Positions 3,344 to 14,997 of a stretch of DNA of 14,997 nucleotides are shown here, piece after piece; within the stretch, counting starts at the first letter, position 1; each line of letters begins with the position of its first letter. Location of the stretch: positions 3,849 to 18,845 of the forward strand of contig JALTLO010000077.1 in assembly GCA_027001995.1 (NCBI GenBank), written 5' to 3'. The translations under genes and the position numbers were made by a program. The notes below the pieces were generated by a model, which worked only from the letters and a program-made list of their open reading frames with translations, searched no databases and had not been told where the DNA came from. Source of the stretch: Planctomycetota bacterium. GTDB lineage: Bacteria > Planctomycetota > GCA-002687715 > DRQF01.

Positions 3344-3652
3344 CTAACCCCTGGTTCTTGGACAGATTGTGGGGACCCCAGCTTTGTTGAGGTCTTTTTC
3401 TGCCTGCTCCGTTTGGATCTTGTCGAGGAAGAGGAAAGCAGTATTGCCGTCGATCAGGGAGGCATGGAGGTCCCTTGGGGCAAAGGACTTCGTTGTGAGC
3501 CCCGCTTTTTCAAAGAGTTTGAGGTCGCCGTCGAAGCCAAGAGCGAGATAAATCGTTCCGCAACGATGTCGAAGGCAGGTTGATATGACTTTCTCTTCTG
3601 AACCGGGGCCGTGAGCTTTGGTGAGAAGAACCCCTAAGTCAATTGTCGCCAT
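3344..3652 (-). CDS. Hypothetical protein (102 aa, MATIDLGVLL...)
   Basis: ATG at 3652 is preceded by a strong RBS (GAAGGAGG on the minus strand) and overlaps the end of the thioesterase gene. No family recognised. Confidence 0.7.
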   Translation of the reverse strand: MATIDLGVLLTKAHGPGSEEKVISTCLRHRCGTIYLALGFDGDLKLFEKAGLTTKSFAPRDLHASLIDGNTAFLFLDKIQTEQAEKDLNKAGVPTICPRTRG

Positions 3653-4100
3653 GCTCGCCTCCTTCTGCGGGCGTCCACAGATCTCCATCATCGGAAACTA
3701 AATAGCGATTAGAAAAGTCCTGGGGTATTGGCACTGACTCGTCTGCAGAGTTCGCGAAGCACATGACAACCCTGGCTCTGGCCCGGACTTTGCCGTCCAC
3801 AGCGCGCCGAATAACCTGGCGAAATACGACGCTACTTCGCCCAGTCTTAACCAAGCGCGTGCCAATCTCGACTTCTTCTCCTGCTAAGGCCGGGCTGAGG
3901 AAATCACAGTTAATGTTGACGACAACGAACCAAGCATCCAAGGCACTTGGGTAGTAGTAGTAGTCGCGACCCTCGGCGCGTAGGAAAGTTTCACGGCCGT
4001 TTTCGAACCAATTGATGTAAGCACCATTGTTGACATGTTTGTACGGGTCCAATTCATAGGATCGAACCGCCTGCCGTGTCTGGACTTCTTGGGTTGTCAT
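3639..4100 (-). CDS. Acyl-CoA thioesterase, hotdog fold (4HBT/YbgC/FadM family)
   Basis: VRSYELDPYKHVNNGAYINWFENGR matches the 'D..GHVNN..Y..W.E..R' signature, followed by a GRSSVVFRQ strand. Length is 153 aa. Confidence 0.92.
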   Translation of the reverse strand: MTTQEVQTRQAVRSYELDPYKHVNNGAYINWFENGRETFLRAEGRDYYYYPSALDAWFVVVNINCDFLSPALAGEEVEIGTRLVKTGRSSVVFRQVIRRAVDGKVRARARVVMCFANSADESVPIPQDFSNRYLVSDDGDLWTPAEGGEHGDN

Positions 4101-4134: not shown

Positions 4135-5139
4135 TCAAACGTTGTCGGTGCTCAATGAATGAGACCAAGCTCTCAGTGTCTTGGCGATTTCAACTTCTCG
4201 ATTCATGGGTGTCAAGAGGGTGCCGCAGGTGGGCGTCAACAAGATGTGGCGGGCCATGGCCTCAGAGCTTTTGATTCCCAACGATTGGCAGAACGTTCTG
4301 ATGTCAGAGCGAAGGTCTGGATCCTCCGACATGGCCATGGGGGCCAGAACACCCAAGGCAAGTACACCACCACCTTCAACGAATTGCCGGAGGAGAACAA
4401 GATTCTCCCATGCAATGGACTGATAACGCAGGAAATCGAAAGACAGATAGTGGGGAGGCAAAGGTGTCAAGAGATCGAAGGGGGGGTGGGAACAACAGTG
4501 GAGCCCTGTTCCTACATGGATGTCTTTCATAGCCCTATTCCATGAGGAGATGAGGCCTTTGGCTTTCTCACGATCGCTTGGTTGATTGATGAGTCCTAAC
4601 ATGGGCTCGTCTAACCACAGGGTGAGTTCTTCACATAGAGGTTGGAGAGCTTGGGCAATCGCTTGGGCGCAGGCGATGGTCCATGACAAGGCCTGGGGGT
4701 GAAATTGGGGGGCACTCCATAGAGGCCTAGATGCACCGTCGCGGATGGTTTGGAGCAAACTTATGGGCCCCATGATTTGGGCTTTCAGGAGAGGCCGTTT
4801 CTTTCCCCGAAAGACAGATGAGGCCCCTCGGGCCCCCTGAACAGCCAAACATCCGTCGATGTTCTCTGGGACTGCTTCAAATGCGTCTAACAGGGATTCT
4901 TCTTCTATCATGTCGGTGAGGGCGACTCCGAAGCCAGAGAGACTGCGGCGGTTGAGCTTTGGGGGCAACAGAAGGGCCAACATGCCGCCATCCCCATCTC
5001 CTTCGGCAATTTGGGGCAAATACGGAATATCGTAGTACCTCGCGATATGATCGCGAGCCGGTTCATGTTGGCAGAAGGGAAGAGAGCCGATTCCAACTGT
5101 TCGCACCATCCCGTTCACGGCTTGCTCAGATTTTTCCAT
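4135..5139 (-). CDS. Single-barrel cobalamin-independent methionine synthase family protein (MetE C-terminal-like; resembles 'core'/MesB-type folate-independent methionine synthases)
   Basis: Ordered motifs GIGSLP, PYLPQI, KAQIMGPISL, WLDEP, GLHCC (His codon 4498-4500), LSFD, LGV and LTPTCG (Cys codon 4225-4227) give the His-x-Cys...Cys zinc site of the MetE/URO-D barrel. At 334 aa it has no N-terminal folate-binding barrel. Confidence 0.75.
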   Translation of the reverse strand: MEKSEQAVNGMVRTVGIGSLPFCQHEPARDHIARYYDIPYLPQIAEGDGDGGMLALLLPPKLNRRSLSGFGVALTDMIEEESLLDAFEAVPENIDGCLAVQGARGASSVFRGKKRPLLKAQIMGPISLLQTIRDGASRPLWSAPQFHPQALSWTIACAQAIAQALQPLCEELTLWLDEPMLGLINQPSDREKAKGLISSWNRAMKDIHVGTGLHCCSHPPFDLLTPLPPHYLSFDFLRYQSIAWENLVLLRQFVEGGGVLALGVLAPMAMSEDPDLRSDIRTFCQSLGIKSSEAMARHILLTPTCGTLLTPMNREVEIAKTLRAWSHSLSTDNV

Positions 5140-10212: not shown

Positions 10213-11442
10213 TCATGGCCTTGGCAAGAGGGGTTTGATCCTATTGAGGTAGGACTCGAGATGGGCACCAGGACAAAGCGTCGATTTCTTTGGCACGTCC
10301 CTGAGCATTGAACGATGACTTGAGACGAAGTGGGGGTGGATCTTGTAAGACTCGCACAACCATGAAAGTAATCGCTTCAATGATTTCTTTTGGCTTGGAG
10401 TTGGGTCTCGCTTGACGAAGTTTCCCATGAGGCAAACGCCAATGTTGCCGCGATTCAGGTCTTTGTTGCCCGCATGAGCTCCTTGCCACTTGAGATCCCG
10501 CCCTTGCCAGATGCGTCCGGAACCATCAATAAGATAGTGGTAACCTAGGTCCGCCCAACCGCGGTCGTCTTGATGGAATTTTTGATAAGAACGCATTTGA
10601 GCTGTGGCTGCAGACATGGACGTGGGGGGGATCTCTGGCGAGGCCGCATGGTGGACGGTAATGCGCCAGGGTTTTGTCATTCTCATAGGGGCCCCCGCTT
10701 GTTTGATTTTCTTGGCACCCCAGACCGATCTGTCGAGAACTTCAGGGGCCAAGACGCTTGGCATTTGGATTTTCGATGCTTTCCCTGCTTGTTTCCCCCG
10801 TGATCTATTGGCCTTCATGAGACCATCATCCAGTTCTTTGTAGCCAAAAGCGGTCTTGTCATGGATACGGTTATGGTAACTCTGAGCCCGGGCAATGCGA
10901 CCTCGTTGGAGGCTACCTTTACCAAGGCGGACTAAGGCTCGATCTTGAAGGCGAGCGTTTTCTGCGAAAGAAACGGCCTCCAGATAGTGGCGTTCAGCAG
11001 AGGTCCAGCTATTCTTGCCTTCATAGGCTCGGGCCAAGCCCATGGAAATCAAGTAAGTCGATATCTTGTTTCTTTTTTTATTGGCTGATCTGGCTCGATA
11101 GAAAGACGTGACCGCTTCATCGTAGCGTCCCAAAGAAACAAGACAGTCTCCCATGAGCTGGGACACGTCTGTCTTTTCTTTCTGACTGCTGGCGCGAAAC
11201 CGGGATTCTGTGAGTAGACTAAGTGCACTTTCATATTGCCCTCGGTCGATTTCGTGGCGCGCCAATGCGATCCCACTTCCTGCAGCCTCTCGGTCATGCA
11301 GTGAATTGTCACTTGCGCAAGCGAAAATGCTGAACAGAAGCAGCAAAGGCGTCAGTTTCCAATAAGAATGATCCATGAGCATAGCTTCCGGGACAGGTTT
11401 GATTTGGGCCGGTTTCCGCATTTCATGGTCAGACAATGACAT
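10213..11442 (-). CDS. Putative lipoprotein: TPR repeats fused to an N-acetylmuramoyl-L-alanine amidase (Amidase_2/PGRP) domain
   Basis: The C-terminal domain has ITVHH, RGWADLGYHYLID, GAHAG, NIGVCLMGNF, SHR and CPG (His/His/Cys zinc ligands plus catalytic Tyr). The middle has TPR-like helices (MGDCLVSLGRYDEAVTSFYRA). LLLLFSIFAC is lipobox-like, which suggests a true start near 11382 or 11376. Confidence 0.85.
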   Translation of the reverse strand: MSLSDHEMRKPAQIKPVPEAMLMDHSYWKLTPLLLLFSIFACASDNSLHDREAAGSGIALARHEIDRGQYESALSLLTESRFRASSQKEKTDVSQLMGDCLVSLGRYDEAVTSFYRARSANKKRNKISTYLISMGLARAYEGKNSWTSAERHYLEAVSFAENARLQDRALVRLGKGSLQRGRIARAQSYHNRIHDKTAFGYKELDDGLMKANRSRGKQAGKASKIQMPSVLAPEVLDRSVWGAKKIKQAGAPMRMTKPWRITVHHAASPEIPPTSMSAATAQMRSYQKFHQDDRGWADLGYHYLIDGSGRIWQGRDLKWQGAHAGNKDLNRGNIGVCLMGNFVKRDPTPSQKKSLKRLLSWLCESYKIHPHFVSSHRSMLRDVPKKSTLCPGAHLESYLNRIKPLLPRP

Positions 11443-11558
11443 GTGGGGGGGATTTCGTCCAATTGTGTCCGTGGATTCGCTTGCAGAATTCTCGATTCAA
11501 GGCAGGATAGCGAAAACAAGCTGGCGACGAAGAATAGGTCTTAAGAAGAGGGTTGATT

Positions 11559-12128
11559 GTGGCATTAACAAGAGAAGAAGCGTGGGCCCATCTTTGCTCC
11601 TGGACTGAGAGTCTACCCTTACGCCAACATGCCAGGGCGGTGGAGGTCGTTATGAAGGCTGCGGCTCAAAAATATGGTGATGGGGCCGATGAAGACCAGT
11701 GGGCTATGGCGGGATTGCTCCACGACGCGGATTACGACCAATGGCCAGAAGACCATCCCCATCGCATAGTGGCTTGGTTAGAGGAAAAGGGCGAAAACGG
11801 AATGGCCCATGCAATTTCTGCCCACTACACAAAATGGGGCGTCTCTTATGAGACAGCCCTCGACAAGGCTCTGCTCGCCTGTGACGAACTCACTGGCTTT
11901 ATCGTTGCCTGCTGTCTGGTTCGCCCAGAAGGAGTGGCCACGCTGAAGCCTAAAAGCGTCAAGAAGAAGTTAAAAACCAAATCCTTCGCTGCCAAAGTTG
12001 AGCGTGATGAGGTGGTGGCTGGCGTTGACATGCTTGGGGTGGATTTGGGAGAGCACATCCAATTCATCATCGATGCCCTGAAACCCCATGGGGAGGAACT
12101 CGGGATAGCCGGTAGCAAGAGGGATTAG
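11559..12128 (+). CDS. HD-superfamily metal-dependent phosphohydrolase (HDIG/COG2316-like)
   Basis: Motifs TREEAW, LRQHARAVE, AGLLHDADY, AISAH, LLACDELTGFI and SVKKKLK.KSFAAKV.R. GTG 11559 follows the purine-rich AAGAAGAGGG. Confidence 0.88.
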   Translation: MALTREEAWAHLCSWTESLPLRQHARAVEVVMKAAAQKYGDGADEDQWAMAGLLHDADYDQWPEDHPHRIVAWLEEKGENGMAHAISAHYTKWGVSYETALDKALLACDELTGFIVACCLVRPEGVATLKPKSVKKKLKTKSFAAKVERDEVVAGVDMLGVDLGEHIQFIIDALKPHGEELGIAGSKRD

Positions 12129-12173
12129 TTCTCGGAACGATTTTGAGACATCGACATTAAGAATGTTGGCGTT

Positions 12174-12569
12174 TCATGAATGAGGATGGCCAATCATCTC
12201 TTCACTAAATGCTTGCAATTCAGACTCCAGCTGTTCCGCTGTGATACAGTTCAGCTTGAGCAGGGTTTCACCCAAAGGTGGTCGCGTCTCCAATTGAATC
12301 TTGAGGAGTTTGACCAAGTCGTCGACTTCCATGAACCCAAGCTCAATGGCGAGGTCGCCAAACAAGAGGTCTGGTTGTTCCCGGCTTCCGGCTTGGATGC
12401 GATCCGCTTGAAGTCGCAAGATGTTAAAAATCTCATTGATGTTTAGGATCTCATGACGCAGAGCGATCCTTCCAAGTGGTTGCTGGTTGTTTCTTTGGTC
12501 TTCAAGTGCGGCCACAATGTCGCCTTTCGTGACAACTCCGCGGGAAACCAAGAATTCGCCGATTCTCAT
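12174..12569 (-). CDS. Small protein made of four tandem MshEN-like motifs (candidate c-di-GMP-binding protein)
   Basis: Four 24-residue units fit RLGxxLLxxGLIxxxxLxxxLxxQ: RIGEFLVSRGVVTKGDIVAALEDQ, PLGRIALRHEILNINEIFNILRLQ, LFGDLAIELGFMEVDDLVKLLKIQ and PLGETLLKLNCITAEQLESELQAF. Confidence 0.75.
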   Translation of the reverse strand: MRIGEFLVSRGVVTKGDIVAALEDQRNNQQPLGRIALRHEILNINEIFNILRLQADRIQAGSREQPDLLFGDLAIELGFMEVDDLVKLLKIQLETRPPLGETLLKLNCITAEQLESELQAFSEEMIGHPHS

Positions 12570-12835
12570 ACCTGAAACTCCGAAAATCTATCCTGTGGTG
12601 TAGGAATCAACACCTGCGTGATGCCTACTCATTCTGTTAAGGGAATTGTTGTTGCCTTTTTTGAAGAAAAGAAAAAGAAACATAAAATTTTCATCGACCA
12701 CTTACAGAATGGAACCTGATATCTTCCTTGAAGAATCTATAAAGGTGAGGTGTTTGGCTGGTTAAGCGTCAGGAAAGACGAGATGTAGGAATTTTGGGAC
12801 GCTTGGGTGTTGGAGGCTCATGGAATGCCACACCT

Positions 12836-12875
12836 AAAAAAACAACCCTCGCAACTCGTTAGAGCTGCGAAGGTT
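12836..12875 (-). terminator. Rho-independent terminator just downstream of the tRNA-Gly 3' end
   Basis: The minus strand reads AACCTTCGCAGCTC-TAAC-GAGTTGCGAGGGTT-GTTTTTTT: a 14-bp stem whose two G-U pairs work only on the minus strand, followed by a run of 7 U. Confidence 0.85.
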
Positions 12876-12878
12876 AAG

Positions 12879-12920
12879 AGCGGGTGATGAGATTTGAACT
12901 CACGACAATCAAATTGGCAA
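12879..12920 (-). mobile_element. 3' half of tRNA-Gly(GCC), not a full tRNA; probable attachment site (attR-type duplication) of an integrative element lying to the right
   Basis: The minus strand reads TTGCCAA (anticodon loop), TTTGA, TTGTC, GTGAG-TTCAAAT-CTCAT (T arm), CACCCGC, T (3' acceptor strand plus the Gly discriminator U). The bases 5' of the loop (CTTCT) do not pair with TTTGA, and there is no D arm or GCGGGTG 5' strand. Confidence 0.8.
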
Positions 12921-13207
12921 AGAAGACCACCGCTGCCCTCACGGTGTCCATGCTCTTAGGCACATGCCGGCCCCAGGTACAAAATCCCAGCCTCCTCTAT
13001 CCAGAGTAAGCACGAAGGTTCGTACTAAACGGGCTGGGACAGATGTTTAATGGGGCACGACTGGCAATGAAACGCCGACAGGTTGCTGTTTGCAATGTTG
13101 GTGAGAGAAGGCCCAGGAGCGGTAAATCTAAGAATCTTCTTTGCCGACTTGAAACTCTTGGCGCATCCTCAAGGCAAGCTTCGGGACGCGTGTTCAGATC
13201 TTGTCGA

Positions 13208-13618
13208 TCACCTCATCGGAGTGAGAGTACCGCCATTGCCAGGCGATCCGCAACTTCCGCTGTGATCATTGGTTCCGTTTACCCTTACGTTTACTATCAT
13301 CTCTGGGGGATTTGCGCTGTTCCATGGGATATCAAGGGACGGAGCATCAGATTGCGAAAGCGTAAATTTTGCTCGGTACCTGTTGCCCGGGAATGCCCCA
13401 GGTTCTTCTGGCAAGAGGTTGAAATTCAGGTCGCTAAAGGTCACAGAATTGCCATTGATTCCGTAGTCGAAAGTGCCCGTCAGCGTGCTTCCAACTTGAG
13501 TTCCAGAAAAACTTGCGCTTCGGCTTCCTCCATTTGTTCCTGATATGCTGACACTTTGTGCATTGGATATTCCGCACAACACTATCAAAGCAATCATTGA
13601 TCGTAGGATCGTCTTCAC
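13208..13618 (-). CDS. Hypothetical secreted protein (136 aa, Gly/Ser/Thr/Asn-rich, probably beta-rich)
   Basis: GTG start with an AAGGAGG RBS and a GTGA overlap with the upstream stop. Signal-peptide-like N-terminus MKTILRSMIALIVLCGISNA|QSV. Confidence 0.75.
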   Translation of the reverse strand: MKTILRSMIALIVLCGISNAQSVSISGTNGGSRSASFSGTQVGSTLTGTFDYGINGNSVTFSDLNFNLLPEEPGAFPGNRYRAKFTLSQSDAPSLDIPWNSANPPEMIVNVRVNGTNDHSGSCGSPGNGGTLTPMR

Positions 13619-14484
13619 CTTCTTCCTCCTTGGTTAAACAAATCGATCGCTCTGGACCTTCCTCGGCGATTTCTTTCGGAAACCACATTCTCTGTCAAAG
13701 TGGAGAATGACGGCCTGCCTGTCTCGTAGAATGGCGCAAAGTCACGAAAATGCTCGATGTCGTTGTCGTGCCAGTAATTGATATTCTTGATATACTGTTC
13801 GTGGGTCCTTGGTTGCTTTGAGAATGGAGCTGCCTCTACAACTTTTCTAATTTTGGCTTCTACTTCCGCGCCATACCTATCGATGATGTCTTGCGGAGTT
13901 CCGACACCATTCCGCAAGCATTTGCCGGTGAAATCCCAGGCGTCCATTGCTTTTTCTTCGTCATCCAAGAGCTCGGTGTATTGGAGCAGGGTGTATAGGT
14001 GACCTTTTCGCGCCGCTACTACATACTTATCTTTGTCGAGCCGCTTGGGAGTCTTGATCTTCTTCTTCAAGAAATTTCGAGCTTTCTTTCTTCGGATTAG
14101 ATCGATCTTTTCTTGTCTCAGGCGTGCGTTGTCTAACTTCAAAGACTCTATTTCTGCCTGCAGCCGTTTGCCTCTGGCAACAATCGCACTCATTTCTCCA
14201 CGCAAACGATTCAAATCTGCCCTTAGGGTGGAGTGGTCTGACCTTGCGGCCGTGACATGTTCGTCAAGAGCAGGACCTTGAACAATTTCAATGTGTGAAA
14301 TGTGGTTGTCTTCTGCGCTGGCAGATTCCCTTCCAACAACAAACGTTGATGGCAAAAGGACTAACATTGTAAGAACAAAAAAAATGCGCTTTGTTCCGTA
14401 GTTTGCTTCGGGATTCGACATGGTACGTTTGATCCTGAAAGTGTTGATATAGCTCCCCGAAAACCACAGAAGGAGCCGTATCAC
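13615..14484 (-). CDS. Hypothetical exported or membrane-anchored coiled-coil protein
   Basis: 289-aa ORF with a hydrophobic segment (IFFVLTMLVLLPSTFVV) and heptad repeats (LRADLNRLRGEM...LQAEIESLKLDNARLRQEK). The real start may be ATG 14421 (MSNPEANY). Confidence 0.7.
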   Translation of the reverse strand: MIRLLLWFSGSYINTFRIKRTMSNPEANYGTKRIFFVLTMLVLLPSTFVVGRESASAEDNHISHIEIVQGPALDEHVTAARSDHSTLRADLNRLRGEMSAIVARGKRLQAEIESLKLDNARLRQEKIDLIRRKKARNFLKKKIKTPKRLDKDKYVVAARKGHLYTLLQYTELLDDEEKAMDAWDFTGKCLRNGVGTPQDIIDRYGAEVEAKIRKVVEAAPFSKQPRTHEQYIKNINYWHDNDIEHFRDFAPFYETGRPSFSTLTENVVSERNRRGRSRAIDLFNQGGRR

Positions 14485-14823
14485 TGTCCGACATGAAGTG
14501 CCTATGACTTGAGTTGACAGTGTCTAAGCTAATACCGAAGGCGAACCATCCCGTCGGGTGGCGGTCGCTTCATCGAGTTGTGTTCAAGTTGCCTGCAAGG
14601 AGTGTTGACATAGACCATTCATGTCTTTCATTTCACTACCTAATTATGCGAATCAGAGCTTGGAAGTTGCCAGCCAAAAATCCTCGGCAAAATAGGACTA
14701 AGCCGTTTGGCTTAATTTGGTGACAGTTTCAATTCTATTCGCCGTGCCGTTCTTGTGGTCAGACTCCTGTGTCCGACCGCTCTCTTTCGGCGCAGTTAAA
14801 CACGGGGACAAATAGTCTGCAAC

Positions 14824-14853
14824 AAGAAATTTGAATTTTTATTCAACTTTCTT
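14824..14853. repeat. AT-rich imperfect inverted repeat, possible operator
   Basis: AAGAAATTTGAAT-TTTT-ATTCAACTTTCTT: 13-bp arms with one mismatch. Confidence 0.5.
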
Positions 14854-14997
14854 CAAAGGAAATTCGTATGCGGTCGGTGCACGAAGATCCAATTGATTGC
14901 AATGCGGCCCACGCTGTGATTGACGTCAACGACCTGGAGTAGAAAAGGACAATGTTTGCCTCTCAATTGGCTGCAAAAGCAACGAGTTGAGGATTGA

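Follow-up and report, generated by a model that had tools for sequence, protein, structure and literature searches.

The stretch of DNA analysed here, referred to as the window, comprises the last 14,997 bases of contig C77 in an assembly of 5.2 Mb (204 contigs, 92% complete). As a limited check of a planctomycete origin, the genome gave one PF07587 match above cut-off, and 14 control genomes gave none. Its left flank carries genes for MDH, NrdJ, a dCTP deaminase, an amidase, an HD protein, and an MshEN-motif protein, the last of these being the first host gene past the junction described below (Table 1). Homologs of this 131-aa MshEN gene were found downstream of tRNA-Gly(GCC) in two congeners, G001 (two in tandem) and G002, and a paralog lies on contig C54. 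The protein encoded at 10213-11442 (minus strand) combines TPR and Amidase_2 and has a lipoprotein-like N-terminus; it was also found near tRNA-Gly(GCC) in G001, G002, G003, and G007. Two other minus-strand ORFs of the window, of 334 aa (4135-5139) and 115 aa (3344-3691), had no Pfam or NCBIfam match. The former, judged by eye, may be a methionine-synthase-II-type barrel.

Between the MshEN-motif gene and the 136-aa ORF to its right, and outside any other tRNA, lies a 42-nt tRNA half that runs through the discriminator. Its similarity to the intact tRNA-Gly(GCC) gene of the same genome (C191:394-467) stops exactly at loop position 32, and over tRNA positions 1-31 the two sequences match at 7 of the 31 bases, the 5' half being absent. 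Compared with the intact gene, the half consists of the 7-base loop, three mismatches, and a perfect block of 35 bases, which occurs exactly twice in the 5.2-Mb genome; by BLAST, the half aligned with the gene over 44 of 48 bases (E 2e-13). ARAGORN, with introns allowed, called no tRNA on C77, and Rfam at E<=1 over 11000-14997 found no gene at the position of the half. Since the half also folded no better than its shuffles (z -0.39), a structured RNA was rejected. A split, permuted, or intron-containing tRNA was rejected as well: there was no orphan Gly 5' half among the partial tRNA matches listed, an intact gene is present, and the stem strand of the half could not pair with that gene. The half is followed by an intrinsic terminator with a 15-bp stem at 12843-12876 and a T run; its stability is -23.9 kcal/mol (z -5.8), which 0 of 200 shuffles equalled.

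Table 1. Features at the junction and in the tRNA-Val(CAC) array. Positions refer to the window unless a contig is named.
Feature	Position	Strand	Basis
131-aa stand-alone protein carrying two c-di-GMP-binding motifs related to MshE; first host gene past the junction	12174..12569	-	NF053729, 65.1 bits vs cut-off 38
Intrinsic terminator, now also 3' of both cargo genes	12835..12876	-	hairpin and T run
35-nt perfect direct repeat common to the half and the intact gene on C191	12876..12910	-	exact word count in the genome
Displaced tRNA-Gly(GCC) 3' half, anticodon loop to discriminator, attR-type junction	12879..12920	-	40/43 identical to C191:394-467, tRNA positions 32-74
Lesion of three bases at tRNA 39-41 (anticodon stem, 3' strand), TTT vs GGC in the intact gene	12911..12913	-	alignment with the intact gene
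Anticodon loop TTGCCAA, 7 nt; putative strand-exchange (overlap) region	12914..12920	-	7/7 identical to the intact gene; 7/31 upstream
Assembled end of the inserted DNA, to the contig end	12921..14997	.	unmatched by DNA at the G001/G002 loci and in the rest of the genome
136-aa orphan ORF with a signal-peptide-like N-terminus (by eye)	13208..13618	-	itself only among 5.8 billion proteins
ORF with hydrophobic N-terminus, coiled coil, and C-terminal domain without family; 289 aa if started at GTG, 268 aa if started at the ATG at 14421	13615..14484	-	no family above a curated cut-off
tRNA-Val(CAC) array: intact gene with 406-aa integrase behind	C146:27486-28915
tRNA-Val(CAC) displaced 3' half	C175:9970-10015		46/46
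tRNA-Val(CAC) displaced 3' half	C145:1725-1767		43/43
tRNA-Val(CAC) displaced 3' half	C84:6693-6735		41/43
tRNA-Val array: second integrase, 383 aa, with small HTH-like ORF	C140:200-1798

The DNA to the right of the half extends for 2077 bases to the contig end. Its GC content was 48.0%, versus 51.7 ± 1.5%, with 18 of the 2409 windows of the same size being as low; its tetranucleotide divergence was unremarkable (157 of 2296 windows as high). This DNA is gene-poor and carries two coupled minus-strand ORFs, the start of the 136-aa ORF overlapping the upstream stop. Relatives of the 136-aa protein were found in none of the 22 other genomes of the order, and its single-sequence structure model was beta-rich and unreliable (pLDDT 48.6), too poor for a structure search. 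The 268-aa protein had one relative with 89% identity and a homolog with 29% identity elsewhere in G001, and its profile search gave six matches, including itself, none with an informative family. Neither ORF reached a curated family cut-off, PHROG gave a weak coiled-coil match or none, and all ESM Atlas matches for the cargo were under 0.9.

Searches for other copies of the element gave 0 viral contigs and 0 phages, the 268-aa protein was found on 0 genome contigs, and the metagenomes yielded one locus (L041), which corresponds to an intact gene with no fragment nearby. The assembled end, the interior being unassembled, contained no virion, packaging, or lysis genes, and it had no match among phage genomes and viral contigs. 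None of these results marks the element as phage or ICE.

A first-pass annotation, made from the sequence of the window, had described a 42-nt tRNA-Gly half that begins at the anticodon loop, lacks a 5' half, and is followed by a terminator, with recognisable genes to its left and unrecognisable ORFs to its right. The alignment and the hairpin agree with the first part of this description, and the family searches with the second.

The intact tRNA-Gly(GCC) gene and the site in relatives

The only intact tRNA-Gly(GCC) gene that ARAGORN identified in the genome is located on the minus strand of contig C191, 393 bases from the left end of that contig. The window ends at the right end of C77; with the left end of C191 placed next to it, the fragment is downstream of the gene and directly oriented relative to it. 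The genome holds an intact tRNA gene and a fragment of the same gene (40 of 43 bases identical over 12878-12920). An intact tRNA-Gly in a compatible orientation had been predicted to lie outside the window, and it is indeed present at a contig end. The search proposed for it, using an exact repeat of the half, would have missed this partner because the half, with TTT in place of GGC, is not a perfect copy of the intact gene.

The intact gene is followed on its 3' side by a different terminator, with 393 bases to the contig end. A tandem 8-base direct repeat (C191:315-332), unique in the genome, lies 62-78 bases behind the intact tRNA. We take this repeat to resemble an arm-type site, as a candidate. 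On the window side, a search for the arm-like repeat gave two 2-mismatch matches only, in 480 bases, and the two element ends had no common word of nine or more bases. There was no sequence overlap between C77 and C191, and contig linking by end overlap or BLAST gave nothing. Gene and fragment being on separate contigs, their order on one replicon was taken from G001 and G002, which carry both flanks on a single contig. We infer from this order that the right end of C77 joins the left end of C191 in this genome, across an unassembled interior. The element would then be at least about 2.5 kb long (2077 + 393 bases plus the repeat), the range given for Islander being 2-200 kb.

The DNA 3' of the half aligned with the post-tRNA DNA of G001 and G002, with scores of 25 and 29, respectively, reached by 2 and 0 of 500 shuffles. 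The C191 terminator scored 8 and 11 against the same DNA, which corresponds to no alignment. These comparisons suggest that the terminator in the window is probably the original one of the host tRNA gene; this assignment is only moderate because the window terminator also aligns with that of C191, the two terminators of the genome resembling each other with a score of 29.

A search of 40 relatives gave matches to at least a portion of 11500-13100 in 23 of them. In G001, another species of the same genus (83% complete), contig C563 carries, in order, SecDF, a LysM-like gene, IscS, tRNA-Gly(GCC), a terminator, a 122-aa ORF, two MshEN-gene homologs, HD, amidase, and dCTP deaminase genes; those that correspond to C191 are named from a reading of their translations. 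The tRNA-Gly(GCC) of G001 is identical to the intact gene at 74 of 74 positions, and the flanks found on C191 and in the window are joined on this one contig, with no fragment between them; at this place G001 has its own 122-aa ORF. An empty site in relatives, as anticipated in the first-pass annotation, was thus found in G001, which joins both flanks around an intact tRNA. In the congener G002 these flanks are likewise on one contig, separated by 26.4 kb of other genes. No integrase was found in this interval, and a tRNA fragment was not detected above chance (best local score of 26 on both strands, shuffled maximum of 28). These variable genes lie between tRNA-Gly(GCC) and the MshEN gene (G002:C15, ~17.6-44.1 kb; L023, L024), and the locus is plastic in the genus. 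At four of eight more distant loci, orthologs of window-flank genes were located downstream of the tRNA, at a distance of no more than 5 kb. In G003 and G007, matches occurring in pairs 17 kb apart were rejected as islands, these being separate Gly(GCC) and Gly(CCC) genes.

Integrases and other tRNA islands in the genome and the order

No integrase was found in the 2470 assembled bases of the element (2077 + 393, with the interior unassembled), and none of the 10 PF00589 matches of the genome could be assigned to the Gly(GCC) site. Among the PF00589 matches of the order, none was beside a located tRNA-Gly(GCC). The integrase of the element may lie in the gap or may have been lost. The island reading of the first-pass annotation is supported as regards an insertion at tRNA-Gly; the integrase that should accompany it was absent from the assembled ends.

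An array of tRNA-Val(CAC) copies and fragments with two integrases was found in the same genome (Table 1). Two of its three fragments stop exactly at loop position 32, and the third stops three bases further. The integrase on C140 was rejected as the missing enzyme: a 72%-identical homolog in G005 follows tRNA-Val(CAC), and the post-tRNA sequence there is that of C175. The clade of the array integrases was found in 5 of 23 genomes, behind tRNA-Val(CAC) or tRNA-Gly(CCC), not Gly(GCC). The phage-like clade of C203, C97, and C149 was also rejected as the source, with a tRNA within about 1.5 kb at 0 of 12 loci, as were the integrases on C170 and C88, which look like XerC/XerD, judging from length and sequence. 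Further candidates in the genome are located on C187 and C134, in addition to three resolvase-domain matches.

Related pieces of phage-like or satellite-like character, three or four in number, were observed on C149 (1968-10122), C203, C97, and C91, and every one carries a XerC-like recombinase; by reading, C149 also carries terminase-like and ParB/methylase-like ORFs. There was no convincing tRNA-Gly(CCC) in the genome, where the call on C68 looks spurious and the gene may be unassembled; G001, G003, G005, and G007 each have one. In the order, tRNA-Gly(CCC) is an island target, with an integrase directly behind it in G005 (L031) and G013 (L046), and a displaced half in G006 (L034:9453-9496). 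A broad pattern scan gave 121 stretches, of which 80 were examined with their flanks; most were intact genes, and four were clear fragments away from contig ends (L087, L110, L129, and L131). For the tRNA-Gly fragment of L087/L088, an integrase ORF overlaps it in L087. At L110, a Gly(GCC) half also stops exactly at loop position 32. The locus described here adds tRNA-Gly(GCC) as a target in a lineage in which integrases were found only beside tRNA-Val(CAC) and tRNA-Gly(CCC).

The junction in sequencing runs and the proposed mode of insertion

The junction was compared with contigs from four (X1 to X4) of five listed sequencing runs, X3 coming from another study, X1 being possibly the source, and X4, like the fifth run X5, accounting for a small share. 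Cargo pieces were present in all four runs compared. Contig 6 of X1 (depth 10.2) carries TTT at 12911-12913. Contig 20 of X3 (depth 2.4, which may hold errors) spans 12622-12995 and differs from the window by 12 substitutions and five gap bases in total. At 12913 (position 39) this contig has the base of the intact gene, and at 12911-12912 it has those of the window; the lesion is thus not uniform between strains. Over the 43 bases of the half, X3 exhibited five substitutions, including that at position 39, and a 3-base deletion, compared with 22 differences in 1662 bases in the seven other listed X3 pieces (P about 3e-4). In the hairpin, X3 exhibited three changes, which were located in the loop or turned a wobble pair into a Watson-Crick pair and left the stem intact, the last of them being common to X2. 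As judged from these patterns of change, it looks as though the terminator is maintained in X3 and the tRNA half is not.

Taken together, 12879-12920 is very probably the displaced end of the genome's only tRNA-Gly(GCC) gene, that is, the scar of an insertion at that tRNA. Our full reading, to which we assign a probability of about 0.6, is that a tyrosine integrase mediated an insertion centred on the anticodon loop, that the fragment has since decayed, and that the insert is probably fixed. A mobile element would have entered the single tRNA-Gly(GCC) gene by recombination in the loop; the tRNA 3' half carried by the element would have rebuilt the gene at one end (C191), bringing its own terminator, and the original 3' half and terminator of the host would have been pushed to the far end, where they form the fragment in the window. 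Positions 39-41, the old stem strand of the host, would then have mutated as the fragment decayed. A crossover in the loop is inferred because the boundary lies exactly at position 32, as in two of the three Val fragments and at L110. Excision through the loop would leave an anticodon stem with two Watson-Crick pairs, one G-U pair, and two mismatches, and the core half-site would be altered. The insert is probably locked in place because such an excision would disrupt the anticodon stem in the sole tRNA-Gly(GCC) gene; of the 240 Gly codons counted in six genes of the window, this tRNA would read 149. Of wider interest, a small number of substitutions in a displaced half could make excision harmful to a single-copy tRNA. 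Our reading also marks the right-hand end of the window as acquired DNA and orders C77 before C191.

The three changes are adjacent, an arrangement with a probability of 0.003 if changes fall independently anywhere in the 43 bases and of 0.067 if they are confined to positions 32-41. That the three changes adjoin one another, the rest of the half being unchanged, is better explained by a constrained 3' block than by even decay, and because such clustering beside an untouched block is unlikely under even decay, a crossover 3' of the lesion is a possible, although clearly less probable, origin of the same island. The crossover would then have taken place in the T loop or at the acceptor junction (class J of Islander). 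In that case the attP of the element would have brought in the anticodon loop and the three odd bases as a relic, the 35-nt block would be the working att site, and excision would restore a perfect tRNA. Two of the three lesion bases are common to X3 and could predate integration, the T stem supplies inverted symmetry of its own, and J sites account for 1836 of the 3919 Islander islands (PMC4383910). Against this, loop position 32 is exactly where the boundary falls, in common with loop-type fragments of this and other genomes, position 39 varies between strains, and the several changes that X3 carries within the 35-nt block indicate that the block is not maintained there. Selection on the lesion itself is an unlikely variant, in which changes at the core half-site stop excision, loop excision kills the only tRNA-Gly(GCC), and the scar acts as an addiction device that domesticates the cargo, with the 35 bases kept by conversion or reuse as a second att site.

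An origin with no integrase, in which the tRNA was partly duplicated when a plastic locus captured foreign DNA by an illegitimate or homology-aided event, appears improbable. It would agree with the lack of an integrase in the assembled ends and with the 26.4 kb of other genes that G002 holds at the same place, where neither fragment nor integrase was found; however, insertion by an integrase is defined in PMC4383910 by just such a signature, an end fragment that starts exactly at the loop and lies downstream with the orientation of the gene, and this genome also contains two integrases together with four tRNA-Val copies or fragments. An assembly artefact, with a mis-phased 35-nt repeat that hides an empty chromosome and a separate circle or DNA from another organism, is the reading we find hardest to credit. 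No X1 contig bridges the repeat, and both phasings fit the graph; the X1 depth is 10-11 on the insert versus 7.4 on the flank, a depth that is not a copy number and was not counted as evidence of excision. Nevertheless, the X3 contig has 254 bases to the left of the repeat and 85 to the right, and an X2 piece runs from the flank through 12920 with the bases of the window. The objection that the junction might be a chimera, raised together with the original island proposal, is thus answered by one low-depth contig from a second study.

Comparison with known tRNA islands

When an island integrates at a tRNA gene, the gene is restored and a fragment of it is displaced; the crossover occurs at one of three places, namely the anticodon loop, the T loop, and the acceptor junction (PMC4383910; bioRxiv 10.1101/2020.11.02.365908). 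In the catalogue of Hudson, Lau and Williams (2015), Islander, a 3' fragment was recorded in 3760 of 3919 islands and an A site in 2083 (PMC4383910, in the part available). Measured against this catalogue, the scar is of an ordinary, well-known type, the anticodon loop being the site used by about half of the tRNA islands recorded there and a 3' fragment being left by almost all of them. The locus resembles the anticodon-centred (A) islands described there, with an intact tRNA at one end, a 3' fragment from the loop that would lie downstream in the same orientation, and foreign DNA in between. When compared with an A or class I att site, the identity starts at the loop (7/7) but is interrupted at positions 39-41. 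Unlike the Islander islands, which are filtered for an integrase, its assembled ends contain none. It also differs from the "damage" mentioned in the same source, a small deletion 3 bp before the discriminator (PMC4383910, as far as its text was available), since tRNA positions 39-41 are changed here. A literature search and the accessible part of a review (PMC5812530) gave nothing on locking by att damage, by which we do not claim its absence from print.

As in the sublocation classes of Williams (bioRxiv 10.1101/2020.11.02.365908, in its accessible part), the boundary corresponds to one of two symmetric sublocations, the anticodon loop, and the stem forms an inverted repeat around a 7-base overlap. 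The sublocation class depends on the integrase, and the lesion in the window keeps a T-loop or 3' class possible. The closest parallel within the genome itself is the tRNA-Val(CAC) array (C146, C175/C140, C145, and C84), in which the fragments likewise begin at or just before the loop; the array differs in carrying two full-length integrase ORFs and in having two of its three fragments perfect.
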